Below are positions 53,696-61,670 of a stretch of DNA of 64,000 bases, piece after piece. The DNA lies in the NCBI GenBank assembly GCA_016787985.1, contig JAEUTC010000219.1, positions 1,284 through 65,283 of the forward strand, given 5' to 3'. The notes under the pieces were generated by a model. The model had not been told where the DNA came from and ran no database searches. It worked only from the letters and a program-made list of their open reading frames with translations. This DNA comes from Flavobacteriales bacterium (GTDB taxonomy: Bacteria > Bacteroidota > Bacteroidia > Flavobacteriales_F > PHOS-HE28). The position numbers and the translations under genes are program-made. The first letter of the stretch is position 1; each line of letters starts with the position of its first letter.

Positions 53696-54199
53696 CTAAT
53701 GCGGACCACCTCGTTCTATGACACCGCTGAGTGCATCCATGCTGTCGCACCAGCCGCCCACGTGACTGTCGCGCGAGGCCTCGGTGGCGAGACCGGTCTG
53801 GCGGAACTCCATCCGCGTGCGCGTGTCTTCCTCGTGCAGATCAACGGTGACCAGCGTGCGGTGATGCGCCGGATTCACCGGCACCGGCGATATCTCCCAC
53901 CGGTGCGTGAAGGCCAGGTGACCGATGGGCCGCACAGCAGTGTAGGTGCCGTAGATCGGGATGTCCTCACCGGCCGGGTTGCGCAGCACTACGCGGTAGG
54001 TCCCGCCTTCGCGTACGTCGCACGCAGCGCTTTCCGTGCTGAACGCCGCACAACCGAACCATTTCACCAGCATCGCAGGCGTGGTCCAGGCTTTCCACAC
54101 GAGCTCGCGCGGCGCATCGAACACGCGCGTGATGCGGATCTCGTCCGCTGCGGGTGTGGCGACGTTGTTGCGGAGGTGCTGGGCGGTGATCGGCTCCAT
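53696..54199 (-). CDS. SRPBCC superfamily protein, AHSA1 (Aha1-like) type, paralog 8 (last gene of array)
   Basis: ITRVFDAPRELVWKAWTTPAMLVKWFG is the AHSA1-domain N-terminal signature. Confidence 0.8.
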   Translation of the reverse strand: MEPITAQHLRNNVATPAADEIRITRVFDAPRELVWKAWTTPAMLVKWFGCAAFSTESAACDVREGGTYRVVLRNPAGEDIPIYGTYTAVRPIGHLAFTHRWEISPVPVNPAHHRTLVTVDLHEEDTRTRMEFRQTGLATEASRDSHVGGWCDSMDALSGVIERGGPH

Positions 54200-54219
54200 A
54201 CCCGCGAAGGTAGGATCCG

Positions 54220-54597
54220 CTATTGGGTCTTCGCCACGATGCTCTGGAACCCGCCGAACGCCATGCGCTTATGGTCGAAGATGGGCGTCTTCATCTGCTC
54301 GCGGTACATCTTGTCCATGCGTGGATCGCTCATCACCTTCTTGTTCACCTGGTCGCGGTGCTTCCGGCTTTTATACACGATGTACGAGAACAGCACCGTT
54401 TCGTCGGGCTTGCATTTGGCGGCCTTCGGGAACGGGTAGAACATTCCTTCGTGGTCCAGGTCATCGCCCACGCACTCCATGTACTGCAAGGCGCCGTGGT
54501 CCATCCACACCTTGCTCGCGGCCGTTGCCAGCCTCTTGTAGCGCGCCAGGTTCTTCTTTGGGATGGCGATCATGGATCCATCGATGTAGTTGGCCAT
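54220..54597 (-). CDS. DUF1428 domain protein
   Basis: ATG at 54597. MANYIDGSMIAIPKKNLARYKRLATAASKVWMDHGALQYMEC...FSYIVYKSRKHRDQVNKKVMSDPRM. Confidence 0.8.
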   Translation of the reverse strand: MANYIDGSMIAIPKKNLARYKRLATAASKVWMDHGALQYMECVGDDLDHEGMFYPFPKAAKCKPDETVLFSYIVYKSRKHRDQVNKKVMSDPRMDKMYREQMKTPIFDHKRMAFGGFQSIVAKTQ

Positions 54598-54608
54598 GTG
54601 CTGGGGTG

Positions 54609-55136
54609 TTACTGGTTTTCTGCTTGGGTCTTCAGTCCGGCCAGACCGCTCTCGAAGTCCTTGCCGATCATCTTGTCCATGGGGATGAAGATGCTCATGA
54701 GCTTCCCAATGAACAAGTTGGGGCCATCCATGGTCCAACGCACAGTGGTGGCATGGCCTTGCGGCGTGAAGTGGAAGTGCGTGATGCATTCGTTCTTGAA
54801 GGGCCGCACGAAACGCAGGTCGATCTTCACGCCGCGGGTACTGGCCTCCAGCACTTCCATGGTGCCTTCGCCGGCCTTGCCGTTCCCGTTCCACGCGTAT
54901 TTGGCGCCAACGCCTTGCGCCGCACCCAGGTAGTCGCGCTTCATGTTCGGGTCAAGCTTCTCCCAAGGGCTCCAAGATTGCCACTTGTGGAAGTCTGCGA
55001 TGTGCGGCAGGATGCGCTCCGGAGGTGCGTTGATCACGGTGCTGCGTTCGTAGTGCGCGGTGTTCGGCTTCAGCGAAGCAGCGACAAGGATGCCGATGAC
55101 GAGAACGGCGAGGGCGATGAGGATGTAGAGCAGCAT
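54609..55136 (-). CDS. SRPBCC family protein with N-terminal TM anchor (polyketide-cyclase-like), paralog 7
   Basis: MLLYILIALAVLVIGILVAA is a TM segment. It is followed by ERSTVINAPPERILPHIADFHKWQSWSPW. Confidence 0.75.
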   Translation of the reverse strand: MLLYILIALAVLVIGILVAASLKPNTAHYERSTVINAPPERILPHIADFHKWQSWSPWEKLDPNMKRDYLGAAQGVGAKYAWNGNGKAGEGTMEVLEASTRGVKIDLRFVRPFKNECITHFHFTPQGHATTVRWTMDGPNLFIGKLMSIFIPMDKMIGKDFESGLAGLKTQAENQ

Positions 55137-55146
55137 GGTTCAGGGT

Positions 55147-55524
55147 TTATGCGGTCGCTTTCAGACGCTTGTGGTGAAGGACGTACGCCCACACCAGAAA
55201 GGCAACGAACAGGAACATCGGGGCTACCGAAGCAACCGGGTCTCCAACAGCGATGAAGGAGATGATGGCCGCCACCAGATCCACGAAGAAGCCGAAGTAG
55301 GCCCATTCCTTCACGCGCGCCGGTACCATGGGCAGCACGATGGCGACGGCCCCGACCACCTTGGCCCAGGAGACCAGTTGGATGAAGTACAGCGGATAGC
55401 CCAGGTGGTCGTGCAGCATGGCCACGGCCTCGGGCATCAGGGTGATGCCGCCGAAGGAGGAGAAGATCATGAACGCGCTGAAGAGCGCAGTGGCGATCCA
55501 GTAGGTGATGTTGAGCTTTTTCAT
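55147..55524 (-). CDS. DoxX family membrane protein
   Basis: ATG at 55524 overlaps the upstream stop (ATGA). Four TM helices: MKKLNITYWIATALFSAFMIF...LVSWAKVVGAVAIVLP. Confidence 0.75.
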   Translation of the reverse strand: MKKLNITYWIATALFSAFMIFSSFGGITLMPEAVAMLHDHLGYPLYFIQLVSWAKVVGAVAIVLPMVPARVKEWAYFGFFVDLVAAIISFIAVGDPVASVAPMFLFVAFLVWAYVLHHKRLKATA

Positions 55525-60277: not shown

Positions 60278-60290
60278 GGTCGAGCAAAGG

Positions 60291-60791
60291 CTACTTGCCA
60301 GAAGAGAGCAATTCGTCCAGCTGATCGAGGCCCATGGTGAAGCCTTCTTTGAAGCCCATCTGAACGATCTGGTCCAGTTCCTCCGGTGTACCGAAGTGCA
60401 GGATCACGCGCACAACGGTGCGGTCGTCAGTGGCGGCGAAGTGCGCTTCCCAGGCCACTTTCGGCTTGATCGTATTGGCCACACCGTGCTCATCGCAGAA
60501 CGCGTCGCTACCGGAGAAGAAGGTTTTCGGACGAATGACATCGTAGTCGAAGAAGCACCAATGCCGATCACCTTGCGGCCCTTGCATGCAGTAGAGCCAG
60601 CGCCCGCCCTCGCGGAAGTCGAGCGACTTGATAACGCACGCGTAAGGCTTCGGTGCCCACCACTTGCAGAGGATGTCCGCTTGGGTCCAAGCCGCCCAAA
60701 CAGGATCCAGCGGCGCGTTGAAGGAACGCTCCACGGTGATCTTGCGCTGTTCGCGTTGAACCTCGAAGTTGGAAAAGGGGGAAGGGATCAT
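60291..60791 (-). CDS. SRPBCC/AHSA1-type protein, paralog 2
   Basis: VERSFNAPLDPVWAAWTQADILCKWWAPKPY. Confidence 0.8.
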   Translation of the reverse strand: MIPSPFSNFEVQREQRKITVERSFNAPLDPVWAAWTQADILCKWWAPKPYACVIKSLDFREGGRWLYCMQGPQGDRHWCFFDYDVIRPKTFFSGSDAFCDEHGVANTIKPKVAWEAHFAATDDRTVVRVILHFGTPEELDQIVQMGFKEGFTMGLDQLDELLSSGK

Positions 60792-60794
60792 CGG

Positions 60795-61268
60795 TCAGGG
60801 TTGTTGTGAGCGTTCCAAGTATTCCGCCAGGCGACCGAGCGTTTGTTGGCCACCCTCGACCGCGCCGTATTGTTCCACCACCACAGCGCGCGCTTCCTTC
60901 GAGGGGAAGACGGTACGCAGCGTGATCAAGGTACCGCCATCCTGATCCGTGAAGGTCAAGGAACCTTCGAAATGGCGCGGGTTCTCCCAGTCGCCGTGAT
61001 CGTAAACGAGACGATCGATCGGTGTCACCTCGGTGTAGGTGATCAGGTTCGGCCAAACCTTGCCATCGGGACCGGTCATGGTGTATTTCCATTGCCCGCC
61101 GACGCGCAGCTCATGTGCGAGGGTTTTGTTCGCGAACCCCTTCGGGCCCCACCACCGGTCGATGTGTTGCGGATCCGTGCACACCTCCCACACCAAGGCG
61201 CGTGGCGCGTTCACGGCGCGCGTGATCACGATCTCGCGATCACCGACCAGCTTACTTGTTGCTTCCAT
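60795..61268 (-). CDS. SRPBCC/AHSA1-type protein, paralog 1
   Basis: ITRAVNAPRALVWEVCTDPQHIDRWWGPKGF. Confidence 0.8.
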   Translation of the reverse strand: MEATSKLVGDREIVITRAVNAPRALVWEVCTDPQHIDRWWGPKGFANKTLAHELRVGGQWKYTMTGPDGKVWPNLITYTEVTPIDRLVYDHGDWENPRHFEGSLTFTDQDGGTLITLRTVFPSKEARAVVVEQYGAVEGGQQTLGRLAEYLERSQQP

Positions 61269-61629
61269 GCTTCTTGCGTTTGGTCGCAGACTTCACGGGA
61301 GCAGGCTTCTCCTGTGTTTGCAGCTCTTTCAGGTAGTCCTCCAGGCGATCGAAGCGTTCTTCCCAGAACTGACGGTACTGCTCCATCCAGTCGGTGGCCT
61401 CCTTCAGCGGCGCGGCCTTGATCTCGCACGGCCGCCACTGTGCCTCCTTGCCGCGCGCGATCAGCTGCGCGCGCTCCAACACTTTCAAGTGCTTGCTCAC
61501 CGCGGGCAGGCTCATGCTGAACGGAGCGGCTAGATCGTTCACCGAGGCCGGGCCGCTGGAAAGCCGCGCCAGTATGGCCCGACGCGTGGGGTCGGCGAGT
61601 GCGGAGAAGGTGAGCGAGAGGCGGTCCAT
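61252..61629 (-). CDS. ArsR/SmtB family transcriptional regulator (first gene of array)
   Basis: ATG at 61629 (MDRLSLTFSALADPTRRAILARLSSGPASVNDLAAPFSMSLPAVSKHLKVLERAQLI); the track start is TTG. It overlaps the next gene by 17 nt. Confidence 0.85.
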   Translation of the reverse strand: MDRLSLTFSALADPTRRAILARLSSGPASVNDLAAPFSMSLPAVSKHLKVLERAQLIARGKEAQWRPCEIKAAPLKEATDWMEQYRQFWEERFDRLEDYLKELQTQEKPAPVKSATKRKKHGSNK

Positions 61630-61641
61630 GGGTGGGTGGGG

Positions 61642-61670
61642 CAAATGTAATTAACCAACTAGTTAAATAC
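61642..61670 (-). promoter_or_regulatory. Candidate -7 box TACATTTG overlapping a 9-6-9 inverted repeat (candidate ArsR operator)
   Basis: On the minus strand TACATTTG (61649-61642) lies 12 nt before the ATG at 61629. GTAATTAAC-caacta-GTTAAATAC (61647-61670) is symmetric at 8 of 9 positions. Confidence 0.4.

Follow-up and report, generated by a model that had tools for sequence, protein, structure and literature searches.

The 16 consecutive minus-strand open reading frames that run from 61629 down to 53696 in the 64-kb window (the whole stretch of DNA analysed here, 64,000 nucleotides, from an uncultured Flavobacteriales bacterium) begin with an ArsR-type repressor gene and are most plausibly a much enlarged form of a common and poorly understood two-gene module, serving as a battery against toxic small molecules. 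We put at about one half the probability that they form one autorepressed operon whose binding, detoxifying and repair proteins act against exogenous toxins. The sequence-only reading had counted 17 genes, a difference probably explained by the fusion in DUF1801b, which is two separate genes in one related locus (L002); both the ORF list and a second, independent gene caller give 16. Its minus-strand arrangement and domain calls agree with the ORFs and with the Pfam profiles used here for domain assignment. Five pairs of consecutive genes overlap, three of them, as it had described, at ATGA stop/start junctions (HEAT/S5, DUF1801b/S6 and S6/DoxX) and two by 17 nt (ArsR/S1) and 20 nt (S5/DUF1801b); the remaining gaps measure 3-83 nt, six being 13 nt or shorter. 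All eight SRPBCC ORFs detectable across the window lie within the array, and ten of the 16 products have small-molecule-binding folds (the eight SRPBCC proteins, the GyrI-like protein and Arr), to which relatives add VOC-fold proteins. A literature search found no paper with this composition, in keeping with the earlier impression that it lacks a described precedent.

Repressor, promoter and candidate operator

61252-61629, minus strand: arsR, ArsR/SmtB-family winged-helix repressor, 125 aa (Pfam HTH_20/HTH_5)
61642-61673, minus strand: candidate promoter TTTG-N20-TACATTTG, 13 nt 5' of the arsR ATG
61651-61666, no strand assigned: candidate ArsR operator, lying between the -33 and -7 elements and reading TTAACT-AGTT-GGTTAA on the minus (coding) strand

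The arsR product scores 81 bits against an NCBIfam ArsR/SmtB subfamily (cutoff 55), matches PDB 3F6O at 1.7e-24 and is the best-conserved protein of the array (75-94% identity among relatives), its start, MDRLSLTF, being kept in nine of them. The candidate promoter follows the Bacteroidetes consensus, of the -33 TTTG / -7 TAnnTTTG type; the minus strand has no other full match to that motif within the array or close to it. When nine relatives were compared, the 32-nt promoter/operator block emerged as the only conserved stretch upstream of arsR. The operator is an imperfect version of the palindrome TTAACC-N4-GGTTAA, and no other site in the window comes within one mismatch of it; the fetched loci, 1.38 Mb in all, hold 19 such near-perfect sites, 17 of them ahead of arsR orthologues, those of Sinorhizobium and Nostoc included, at about 40 nt from the start where measured. 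The promoter and operator that had been proposed from the window's sequence are thus supported by a phylogenetic footprint, with the operator conserved across phyla.

The characterised relative is the Rv2034-Rv2036 unit of Mycobacterium tuberculosis. There Rv2034 represses its own gene from an inverted repeat whose halves are 4 nt apart (-30 to +3), and the overlapping Rv2035 (SRPBCC) and Rv2036 are expressed together with it (PMC3338718). The array ArsR resembles Rv2034 in its predicted non-metal type and in having an inverted-repeat-N4 operator, here a candidate one. Taken with this precedent, the shared strand, the overlaps, the short gaps, the single promoter match and the conserved operator argue for a single operon; its regulation as an autorepressed unit is well supported, and repression and co-transcription themselves are predicted on these grounds. 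A metal or metalloid resistance operon under a classical ArsR/SmtB metal sensor is what the family name and the NCBIfam match might suggest. However, inspection of the ArsR sequence found no CXC in helix alpha-3, no Asp/His/Glu (His-rich) site in alpha-5 and a single Cys, and Pfam and gene annotation show the array to have no arsenate reductase, efflux pump, metallothionein or P-type ATPase. Rv2034, moreover, is not released by any of seven metals (PMC3338718). We regard the metal system as largely refuted and highly improbable.

SRPBCC paralogs

60795-61268, minus strand: S1, AHSA1-type SRPBCC (Pfam AHSA1 4.9e-26); begins inside the 3' end of arsR
60291-60791, minus strand: S2, AHSA1-type (4.6e-16)
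59414-59836, minus strand: S3, AHSA1-type (6.8e-24)
58923-59402, minus strand: S4, AHSA1-type (6.9e-28)
56667-57167, minus strand: S5, AHSA1-type (2.2e-31); ATGA overlap with the HEAT gene
55521-55997, minus strand: S6, AHSA1-type (2.5e-21); ATGA overlap at each end
54609-55136, minus strand: S7, Polyketide_cyc2-type SRPBCC (Pfam 1e-15); N-terminal hydrophobic helix, putative membrane anchor
53696-54199, minus strand: S8, AHSA1-type (1.8e-25), last gene of the array

The division into seven AHSA1-type proteins and one membrane-anchored protein had been made earlier and agrees with Pfam and with the hydrophobic helix at the S7 N-terminus (MLLYILIALAVLVIGILVAASL). The seven AHSA1 proteins are only 18-32% identical to one another, whereas orthologues of S2 share 64-77% identity (in most relatives) and those of S3 74-94%; by their sequences the seven are ancient, individually conserved subfamilies rather than recent duplicates. 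This fits distinct specificities, and to that extent favours the earlier proposal that each paralog has its own ligand, but a different ligand for each pocket, like any role in sensing or sequestration, is what membership of the family would suggest. S1 shares 49% identity with the SRPBCC that adjoins ArsR on a Streptomyces plasmid, and S5 shares 40% with its counterparts next to ArsR in Sinorhizobium and Rhizobium; since the neighbour of ArsR is thus of the S1 type in certain phyla but of the S5 type elsewhere, none of the paralogs is a dedicated sensor. The idea that an SRPBCC partner may sense the inducer is nonetheless supported by Rv0576, a fusion of a DNA-binding domain with START, and by the arsR/SRPBCC overlap, which is conserved in bacteria and haloarchaea.

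Family members with this fold, such as CalC, confer enediyne resistance through self-sacrifice, and START/SRPBCC proteins are also classic carriers of lipids or quinones (PMC13525633). S1 resembles CalU16 marginally (E 3e-4 across 35 residues), and S7 gives a weak match with the START portion of Xanthomonas XAC1230. The carrier role invites a different account, in which the SRPBCC proteins would be carriers or chaperones, like START, CoxG and Coq10, for hydrophobic cellular ligands such as lipids, isoprenoid quinones or flexirubin/carotenoid pigments. It would suit the adjacency of the membrane-anchored S7 type and DoxX in those relatives whose locus spans that end of the array, and the induction of Rv2034 by palmitate (PMC3338718). 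But no genes for making lipids, quinones or pigments were found in or beside the array at any locus examined, and Arr, the repair-type HEAT and AlkZ-like proteins and the bleomycin-resistance-like proteins would be out of place in lipid transport, so that we consider this account improbable.

Arr and the other genes

59882-60277, minus strand: arr, NAD+-rifampin ADP-ribosyltransferase (Pfam Arr-ms 3e-51); variable cargo
58524-58916, minus strand: DUF1801 (a) (Pfam DUF1801 2.7e-8); variable cargo, in some relatives only
57979-58440, minus strand: GyrI-like small-molecule-binding protein, CTR107 type (Pfam GyrI-like 1.2e-12)
57164-57907, minus strand: HEAT-like-repeat 'DNA_alkylation' protein (Pfam PF08713 8.7e-27)
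55994-56686, minus strand: DUF1801 (b), fused to a Zn-ribbon and RNAP-alphaCTD-like HhH module (Pfam DUF1801 and RNA_pol_A_CTD)
55147-55524, minus strand: DoxX_2-family membrane protein (Pfam DoxX_2 2.1e-16)
54220-54597, minus strand: DUF1428 protein (Pfam DUF1428 1.9e-35); variable cargo

Arr is the sole product to which a biochemical activity can be confidently assigned from sequence: it scores 225.7 bits against the NCBIfam equivalog (cutoff 130) and aligns end to end with the Arr-ms structure 2HW2 (E 6.5e-51), so that its early identification as a genuine Arr holds. Among the fetched relatives it occurs only in L002, L004, L009 and L043, and most related arrays lack it, so that the core function is something other than rifamycin resistance. 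The HEAT protein, initially termed AlkD-like, is overall nearer to AlkF (7e-18), which is not known to have glycosylase activity, than to AlkD (1e-4). Yet its W100, D104 and W179, conserved in 24/24, 24/24 and 20/24 sequences, align to W109, D113 and W187 of AlkD, the catalytic Trp-Asp-Trp triad (PMC8626424), and it is in this respect that the original label is justified.

Proteins of the GyrI-like family act on genotoxins by binding or hydrolysing them (PMC5684135). The GyrI-like domain call stood in Pfam, and the protein matches CTR107 in the PDB (5KAX/2KCU, 1.6e-19) and the EcmrR effector domain (6e-11), whereas a PDB-directed search did not retrieve the hydrolase lin2189; it belongs with the CTR107 binding-protein group and not with the demonstrated hydrolases. 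CTR107, its nearest solved relative, is called a potential multidrug-binding protein in the title of its publication. The DUF1801b ORF (230 aa) matches PRK07758 over its N-terminal part (4.7e-30), and its Zn-ribbon/HhH module is fused, separate or absent across relatives.

Conservation of the block

Some 20 Flavobacteriales MAG loci carry the array with its gene order kept, each having 7 to ~18 genes, and the surroundings are of at least three kinds; this conservation excludes chance and sustains the view that an ArsR-headed block travels as a unit. Its earlier description as an island does not hold: the context is core chromosome, no mobility genes accompany the array, and its GC content is that of the flanks. 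Nine genes form an order-conserved backbone (ArsR, S2, S3, GyrI-like, HEAT, S5, S6, DoxX and S7). Variable cargo includes Arr, DUF1801a, DUF1428, glyoxalase (VOC)-fold/bleomycin-resistance-like proteins, an AlkZ-like glycosylase, a PhnB-like protein, OmdA and the Zn-ribbon module; the bleomycin-resistance-like, AlkZ-like and PhnB-like cargo of relatives strengthens the theme of toxin defence. Such variability, together with a HEAT gene of two divergent allelic types (85-92% versus 50-63% identity) in otherwise similar arrays, could also mean that unrelated small genes simply accreted behind a shared promoter, with no joint function and most cargo dispensable. We think this unlikely, since the backbone order persists although its proteins have diverged to 45-80% identity, and the share of small-molecule-binding folds, with the VOC proteins of relatives, is not at all what a random draw of accessory genes would give.

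The ArsR-SRPBCC module itself is wider. On Sinorhizobium pSymB and a Nostoc plasmid the operator core precedes 73%-identical ArsR genes, but there the unit is only ArsR-SRPBCC plus one or two genes, against 16 here; in other phyla the module carries a GST, GFA or DHFR-like gene, and where it is joined to GFA or GST an alkene reductase or a quinone reductase lies nearby.

A possible, if rather doubtful, alternative to defence against exogenous toxins is an endogenous stress operon that buffers quinones, aldehydes, lipid peroxides and electrophiles from the cell or from oxidative stress, with ArsR sensing thiol-reactive species through its single Cys. Links with redox and electrophile stress are known for the DoxX family and for VOC proteins, and the GFA, GST and reductase associations point the same way. 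In the window and its closest relative the array lies between a divergent OsmC gene and that for the peroxide-stress protein YaaA; these neighbours are, however, confined to the nearest relatives and replaced by unrelated genes elsewhere. The Cys of the array ArsR is conserved within the closest ArsR subfamily but missing from its homologues in Rhizobium and Streptomyces; Cys61 of Rv2034 is required for dimerisation and DNA binding (PMC3338718). Exogenous natural products are indicated instead by Arr, the AlkZ-like glycosylase and the bleomycin-resistance-like proteins.

Repeats and hairpins between genes

59855-59874, no strand assigned: perfect palindrome GGGCCGGGAATTCCCGGCCC, rich in GC, between arr and S3, with no T-run after it
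58451-58533, minus strand: inverted repeat of GATCAGAT octamers with 34-nt arms; 20-bp RNA stem just 5' of the GyrI-like gene
57915-57977, minus strand: tandem octamer repeat GATCAGAT/GATGAGAT, ~7 copies (TRF score 98-112), filling the GyrI-like/HEAT spacer
55530-55549, no strand assigned: perfect palindrome GGGCGGGAAATTTCCCGCCC, 6 nt 5' of the DoxX start

The inverted repeat has a predicted RNA fold of -41.2 kcal/mol (z = -5.7), and relatives have another hairpin at the matching position. Octamer matches number 11 against 0.04 expected, all 11 within the array, and their copy number differs between relatives. At the S6/DoxX junction relatives also carry a palindrome, of other sequence and centred on the ATGA stop/start. 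The mid-array hairpin, which is very stable, and the GC-rich palindromes at two other junctions could lead to attenuation or processing of the transcript, and in this they count against the operon reading; terminator scanning is not informative in this genome, with 4 sites found versus 8.8 expected.

A proposed mechanism

We propose that the 16 genes form one chromosomal operon with a single Bacteroidetes-type promoter at about 61642-61673. A non-metal ArsR/SmtB dimer would bind TTAAC(C/T)-N4-GGTTAA between the -33 and -7 elements and repress the operon, arsR included, until an organic or electrophilic signal, perhaps read via an AHSA1 partner made in fixed ratio to ArsR, releases a polycistronic mRNA of ~7.9 kb, many of whose cistrons would be translationally coupled. 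The products would make up a defensive battery, one that does not rely on efflux, against toxic small molecules of exogenous origin: the seven cytosolic AHSA1 proteins, which have the helix-grip fold, and the CTR107-type GyrI-like protein may bind hydrophobic or aromatic compounds, and either keep them sequestered or inactivate them in a self-sacrificing way; Arr would ADP-ribosylate rifamycins; and the HEAT protein may excise bulky or cationic alkyl-purine adducts from DNA. The membrane pair of DoxX_2 and anchored S7, the two DUF1801 proteins and DUF1428 would perform further steps.

This toxin reading draws on the Arr equivalog, the AlkD triad of the HEAT protein, the CTR107-like protein, the cargo of relatives, the CalC and GyrI-like precedents and the GST/GFA/DHFR-like partners. 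Weighing against it are the nearness of the HEAT protein to AlkF, the failure to retrieve lin2189, the marginal CalU16 match and the breadth of the SRPBCC, VOC and GyrI-like superfamilies, which are very large and have many roles other than resistance. What survives of the sequence-only reading as a whole is the ArsR-headed unit, the operator and Arr, but not the gene count, the island or the plain AlkD label. The array would have arisen by lineage-specific expansion of the widespread ArsR-SRPBCC module, with cargo gained, lost and swapped, and is in that sense a greatly expanded version of a module that was already known.

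Architecture of the array

The array comprises 16 consecutive minus-strand ORFs, from 61629 down to 53696, each with a match in a Pfam scan, and an independent gene caller also places 16 genes here. The order is ArsR, S1, S2, Arr, S3, S4, DUF1801a, GyrI-like, HEAT, S5, DUF1801b, S6, DoxX_2, S7, DUF1428 and S8, in which S1–S6 and S8 are AHSA1-type SRPBCC proteins and S7 is a Polyketide_cyc2-type SRPBCC protein with an N-terminal membrane anchor. The members referred to individually below are:

58524–58916, minus strand: DUF1801a
57164–57907, minus strand: the HEAT protein, a 'DNA_alkylation' HEAT-like-repeat product
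55994–56686, minus strand: DUF1801b, with its fused Zn-ribbon/HhH module
54609–55136, minus strand: S7

Stop and start codons overlap as ATGA at three junctions (HEAT/S5, DUF1801b/S6 and S6/DoxX), ArsR/S1 and S5/DUF1801b overlap by 17 and 20 nt, and the remaining spacers are 3–83 nt long. The sequence-only reading had described these overlaps correctly, had assigned each ORF to the family that Pfam gives it, and had counted eight SRPBCC genes, which is the total for the 64-kb window, every one of them within the array. Its count of 17 genes was too high, and the reason probably lies in DUF1801b, a 230-aa protein in which a PRK07758-like module, consisting of a Zn-ribbon and an HhH resembling the RNA polymerase alpha-CTD, is joined N-terminally to DUF1801. 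The same fusion occurs in four related loci (L003, L004, L010 and L013), but in another, L002, the module is a gene of its own (12046–12342), and it is missing from many relatives. It is possibly a nucleic-acid-binding accessory.

Genomic setting

The closest genomes are uncultured Flavobacteriales MAGs, and the isolate names of several related loci suggest activated-sludge or wastewater samples, if we read the naming schemes correctly; an identical copy of the HEAT protein is found on a Logan metagenome contig. The window itself is ordinary core chromosome, with genes for RNase Y, Ffh, polysaccharide synthesis and a T9SS-associated protein, and the GC content of the array is that of its flanks. 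No integrase or transposase was found within ±10 kb. The label 'island' that had been given to the array is therefore unwarranted, and a mobile genomic island is ruled out. Self-resistance within a biosynthetic cluster is likewise ruled out, as the 64-kb window contains no ORF of PKS or NRPS size and the ten largest of its 24 ORFs of at least 330 aa are ordinary genes in a Pfam scan. An anti-phage role is also rejected, a PADLOC search having returned only a generic wHTH similarity between ArsR and Csa3 and no hits for the other 15 proteins, and an Rfam scan of the whole window found no RNA family.

The array is flanked by the peroxide-stress gene yaaA (52786–53649) and by a divergent osmC, then selU and selD (61792–63279). 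yaaA lies on the same strand after a 46-nt gap and is possibly co-transcribed with the array; this flanking arrangement is retained only in the nearest relatives (L004, and partly L014 and L084). Just past yaaA and convergent to the array, at 50601–52296 on the plus strand, a second and unrelated ArsR-family gene (SdpR-like, 90 aa) is followed by genes for a membrane protein of the SdpI type and a protease resembling CPBP/Rce1. Such a trio is associated, in Bacillus, with immunity to a secreted toxin.

The ArsR regulator and its candidate operator

The first gene encodes a winged helix-turn-helix protein of the HTH_5/HTH_20 type (Pfam 8.9e-14 and 4.5e-11) that scores 81.3 bits against a cutoff of 55 for an NCBIfam ArsR/SmtB subfamily and matches PDB 3F6O at 1.7e-24; among relatives it is the most conserved product of the array. 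ArsR/SmtB repressors are ~100–125 aa long, and their metal ligands are provided by alpha-3 (CXC or alpha-3N) or by Asp, His or Glu of alpha-5. When such ligands were sought in the window ArsR sequence, we found one Cys (in WRPCEI), no CXC, and a C-terminal helix without His, which identifies it, as far as residues can tell, as a non-metal family member like Rv2034 of M. tuberculosis. Rv2034 is an autorepressor whose footprint, from -30 to +3, covers an inverted repeat with a spacer of 4 nt; it is not released by any of seven metals and is co-expressed with the overlapping SRPBCC gene Rv2035 and with Rv2036 (PMC3338718). A role in metal sensing or metal resistance is rejected on the missing metal-site residues and on this precedent.

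The regions upstream of arsR in nine relatives cannot be aligned save for one block of ~32 nt, TTG-TATTTAACC-N4-GGTTTAATA-CGTTTG, which in the window occupies 61642–61673. We take it to combine the Bacteroidetes -33 TTTG and -7 TAnnTTTG elements, with an imperfect palindrome in the spacer. Scans for sigma-70 promoters and intrinsic terminators gave chance-level output and are unsuited to a Bacteroidetes genome, so the TAnnTTTG motif was used instead; its sole full match on the minus strand in or near the array is this same block. In a single-operon model, transcription would start ~7 nt after TACATTTG and run through to 53696. Co-directional genes with short or negative spacers fit such a single transcription unit, but a strong hairpin lies inside the array.

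The candidate operator occupies 61651–61666, in the spacer between the -33 and -7 elements, and the window has no other site with at most one mismatch. Its core, TTAACC-N4-GGTTAA, also lies directly upstream of arsR in Sinorhizobium and Nostoc (L088 8979–8994; L089 8954–8985), in two tandem copies in the latter. Across 1.38 Mb of fetched loci there are 19 sites within one mismatch, all but two of them (17/19) upstream of arsR orthologues, at ~40 nt from the arsR start where measured; the two exceptions look like background. A palindrome overlapping the arsR promoter is thus present in the sequence and conserved across three phyla, and the promoter and operator that the sequence-only reading had placed ahead of arsR are upheld, at the level of sequence, as a candidate site. 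The ArsR proteins concerned, which are encoded by pSymB of Sinorhizobium meliloti and by a plasmid of Nostoc, are 73% identical to that of the window. For a small regulator, such sharing of protein and operator core between phyla is unusual, and a cultured model is thereby available. Taken together, the conserved upstream block, the conserved operator and the parallel with Rv2034 make a case, well supported at the sequence level, that the array would be an autorepressed operon under ArsR.

The single Cys of ArsR bears on a different reading, in which the array answers endogenous electrophile or oxidative stress. That Cys, DoxX, and the OsmC and YaaA genes on either side would all fit such a role, but conservation does not extend to the flanking genes, and some homologues lack the Cys, so that a thiol switch is not a general mechanism.

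Conservation of the array as a unit

The 16 array proteins were mapped onto 80 loci that the HEAT protein had retrieved, and onto others retrieved with homologues of ArsR. The array recurs with its gene order intact in about 20 Flavobacteriales loci, at protein identities of 45–95% and in at least three distinct genomic neighbourhoods: the block travels as a unit. Its size ranges from seven genes (in L082: ArsR, AHSA1, GyrI, AHSA1, Ble-like, Polyketide_cyc2 and DoxX) to about eighteen (in L004), and at least one relative, L084, has eight SRPBCC genes like the window. A backbone of ArsR, S2, S3, GyrI-like, HEAT, S5, S6, DoxX and S7 is retained, and Arr, DUF1801a, DUF1428 and the Zn-ribbon module are variable cargo. 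Additional cargo in relatives comprises two proteins of the glyoxalase (VOC) fold (one of them bleomycin-resistance-like in its N-terminal domain), an AlkZ-like DNA glycosylase (PF06224, 1e-58), a PhnB-like protein and OmdA/YdeI. Variable cargo is what one would expect if the array were a functionless accretion of accessory genes, yet the conserved order of the backbone and the bias towards particular folds speak against this.

Outside the array order, a mini-module of ArsR, AHSA1, optional PhnB, DUF1801 and HEAT occurs in Gemmataceae, Alcaligenaceae, Polyangiaceae and Acidobacteria. The AlkZ-like glycosylase gene, which is absent from the window, is found at 10618–11760 in L004 and 8328–9473 in L010; its N-terminal motif, VQAQD, would presumably be the Q-x-Q form that we associate with AlkZ-type rather than YcaQ-type enzymes.

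The SRPBCC paralogs

The seven AHSA1 proteins share only 18–32% identity with one another, S7 belongs to another SRPBCC family, and each AHSA1 protein has a positional orthologue in relatives. By comparison, S1 has 49% identity with the SRPBCC protein next to ArsR on a Streptomyces plasmid, and S5 has 40% with the one next to ArsR in Sinorhizobium. Identities that are lower within the array than across phyla rule out recent tandem duplication and indicate that the array was assembled from ancient subfamilies rather than amplified locally, which is compatible with, without proving, a different ligand specificity for each paralog. A set of lipid or quinone carriers might be imagined from such a collection, but biosynthetic partner genes are absent.

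As the SRPBCC protein next to ArsR is S1-type or S5-type depending on lineage, no single paralog is the universal partner of ArsR; for S1 in particular, that role is weakened by the S5-type neighbour in rhizobia. A sensor role for an SRPBCC protein is nevertheless conceivable by analogy, given that a fusion of DNA-binding and START domains exists in Rv0576 and that the overlap of arsR with an SRPBCC gene is conserved in bacteria and haloarchaea. The match of S1 to CalU16 is marginal (3e-4 over ~35 residues), and uncharacterised AHSA1 proteins from structural genomics score better. S7 has a weak match to the START portion of XAC1230 from Xanthomonas citri, a secreted protein in which START and GyrI-like domains are fused and which is required to activate type III secretion; this is another physical link between two folds present in the array.

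Arr, HEAT and GyrI-like proteins

Arr scores 225.7 bits against the NF033144 equivalog cutoff of 130, covers positions 1–99 of 99 of the Pfam Arr-ms model, and matches Arr-ms itself (2HW2) at 6.5e-51 over residues 2–129, with the HGTKA, NH(V/I)Y and EDDPN segments aligned. Its identification as a rifampin-inactivating enzyme accordingly stands, and although it is optional cargo, it is the sole product with a firm biochemical assignment.

The HEAT protein has the PF08713 HEAT-like repeat fold (Pfam 8.7e-27), and a profile search ranks AlkF/1T06 (7e-18) far ahead of AlkD (1e-4) and AlkD2 (0.015). AlkF was reported to be without glycosylase activity. Unlike AlkF, however, the HEAT family retains residues aligned to the catalytic triad of AlkD, Trp109-Asp113-Trp187 (PMC8626424): W100, D104 and W179 are kept in 24/24, 24/24 and 20/24 family members. 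The earlier description as AlkD-like therefore holds for the fold and the triad but not for overall closeness, in which AlkF is nearer, and a glycosylase activity is plausible from these residues. AlkD, YtkR2 and C10R5 themselves share only 19–25% identity (PMC8626424). In comparisons of the window with L043, L014, L012 and L013, the HEAT gene is bimodal, at either 85–92% or 50–63% identity, against 75–94% for other array genes; two divergent types within otherwise similar arrays point to exchange at the level of the gene, and suggest that in some arrays HEAT alone was replaced by a distant allele.

Pfam confirms the GyrI-like fold, and among solved structures the protein is nearest to CTR107 and the EcmrR effector domain (6e-11). 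CTR107 is a stand-alone protein to which a potential multidrug-resistance function has been ascribed. GyrI-like cyclopropanoid hydrolases (YtkR7/lin2189) have a catalytic Glu pair and an aromatic cage (PMC5684135); the array protein has one conserved Glu, in WESYL, and its search at E≤0.1 did not retrieve lin2189 (3B49).

Hairpins and repeats within the array

Several junctions contain inverted or tandem repeats:

just upstream of the GyrI-like gene: 20-bp stem (-41 kcal/mol, z = -5.7)
59855–59874: perfect GC-rich palindrome after arr
55530–55549: perfect GC-rich palindrome before doxX
57915–57977, 58451–58533 and 55984–56019: 8-nt tandem repeat, GATCAGAT/GATGAGAT on the coding strand

The stem and palindromes could modulate the transcript. 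Relatives have hairpins at matching junctions that differ in sequence, those at S6/DoxX being centred on the ATGA stop/start, and this retention of structure fits a structural role and suggests structure-dependent translational coupling, mRNA processing or mRNA stability. The palindromes take the form GGGCnnG...CnnGCCC over 18–20 nt, with structure conserved and sequence not; examples are L004 9315–9334, L012 11429–11448 and 7309–7328, L006 2404–2421 and L043 6974–6993, and in three relatives the S6/DoxX ATGA is at the hairpin centre. The octamer repeat is confined to the array (11 matches against 0.04 expected), where it fills the GyrI-like/HEAT spacer and builds an inverted repeat upstream of the GyrI-like gene. 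Its copy number among relatives is ~2–10, and some carry other short repeats in its place. It includes GATC sites and repeated AUGA mini-ORFs, and might serve to relay re-initiation, to bind a protein, or as a spacer prone to slippage.

Discussion

The head of the array adds a new member to the module of Rv2034-type ArsR plus SRPBCC, which is known but poorly understood. As in Rv2034-Rv2035-Rv2036, a non-metal ArsR with a single Cys per monomer comes first, an overlapping SRPBCC gene follows, and an inverted-repeat operator with a 4-nt spacer lies over the promoter (PMC3338718; PMC13525633). There are, however, three genes there and sixteen here, the Rv2034 half-site is CCGTAAGT rather than TTAACC, and Rv2034 additionally acts on dosR and phoP. 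A 2026 review mentions only small operons (PMC13525633). As it gives the function of Rv2035 as unknown, this precedent explains the regulation and not the role of the cargo. Also related are small modules (2–4 genes) found on replicons of Sinorhizobium, Rhizobium, Nostoc, Streptomyces and haloarchaea, with ArsR proteins up to 73% identical, the same TTAACC-N4-GGTTAA operator and an SRPBCC gene that overlaps or abuts arsR. Their third gene encodes a small detoxification-type protein (GFA, GST, DHFR-like or DUF1801), but they have one SRPBCC gene instead of eight, lack Arr, HEAT, GyrI-like, DoxX and DUF1428, and none is characterised.

The cargo finds a counterpart in the self-resistance sets for genotoxins: YtkR2 and YtkR7 for yatakemycin, C10R5/C10R6 for CC-1065, CalC/CalU16/CalU19 for calicheamicin and AlkZ for azinomycin. 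The folds that they combine, in AlkD-type HEAT glycosylases, GyrI-like binders or hydrolases and sacrificial SRPBCC proteins, are also those of the array (PMC5684135, PMC8626424, PMC9040887, PMC13525633), and AlkZ has its parallel in the AlkZ-like glycosylase of relatives of the array. They differ in that the window has no biosynthetic cluster, that the array proteins are only distantly related to theirs and are under ArsR control, and that the presumed targets here are foreign and not self-made compounds. BmrR, EcmrR, Rob and TipA also tie a polyspecific GyrI-like binding domain to transcription of protective genes, but in the array that domain stands alone as cargo, outside the regulator, which is of the ArsR and not the MerR or AraC type, and no efflux pump is controlled. 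Integron cassette arrays, too, consist of small variable genes in long co-directional runs that are expressed from one end, with some intergenic palindromes, and can carry the GyrI-like Cass2. An integron is nonetheless ruled out: there is no integrase within ±10 kb and there are no attC-like sites (57–141 nt), the palindromes being 20-nt perfect hairpins; the backbone order is conserved; and the genes are joined by translationally coupled overlaps or short spacers and not divided by recombination sites.

Characterised members of the folds in the array protect by binding, inactivating or repairing the effects of toxic natural products, and not by efflux. Arr acts on rifamycins, and VOC-fold proteins include bleomycin-resistance proteins. 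The SRPBCC-fold CalC protects against enediynes (PMC13525633), GyrI-like proteins act on yatakemycin and CC-1065 (PMC5684135), and AlkD/YtkR2 and AlkZ handle genotoxin-DNA adducts (PMC8626424, PMC9040887); the GyrI-like fold is also reported to be linked to albicidin and closthioamide resistance. With a GST, GFA or DHFR-like gene in the ArsR-SRPBCC module of other phyla, the simplest common denominator, drawn from family membership and gene context, would be an inducible battery directed at toxic small molecules of exogenous origin, exogenous since no biosynthetic cluster is nearby.

It is tempting to go further, and we give about one chance in four to the proposal that ArsR-headed SRPBCC arrays are a general and unrecognised form of non-efflux multidrug defence. 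A repressor whose operator is conserved from Bacteroidota to Proteobacteria and Cyanobacteria would sense organic toxins, possibly via a stoichiometric AHSA1 partner, and release AHSA1 'sponge' or sacrificial proteins, each for a different natural-product scaffold, along with enzymes of inactivation and DNA repair. The orphan AHSA1 proteins of bacteria and archaea, which number in the thousands, would then be toxin-binding resistance factors.

A full-text literature search found no paper that combines these families or describes ArsR-headed multi-AHSA1 arrays, in agreement with the sequence-only reading, which knew of no system of this composition. To comparative genomicists, a regulator followed by a group of small-molecule-binding domains will come as no great surprise; what is new is the Flavobacteriales expansion to 7–18 genes with resistance- and repair-type cargo. 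The array is real and conserved, and it generates hypotheses for a large orphan family: bacterial AHSA1/SRPBCC proteins are very numerous, with many structural-genomics structures and almost no known functions, and annotations of the ArsR-SRPBCC pair, in bacteria as in archaea, come with no explanation. In these arrays a single conserved unit brings seven AHSA1 subfamilies together with relatives of proteins that inactivate rifamycins, bind several drugs or repair genotoxin-DNA adducts, which yields a concrete hypothesis for the whole family, and the cross-phylum operator provides an experimental handle, including in the tractable Sinorhizobium meliloti. If the battery protects against antibiotics, it would constitute a chromosomal, non-efflux reservoir of resistance.
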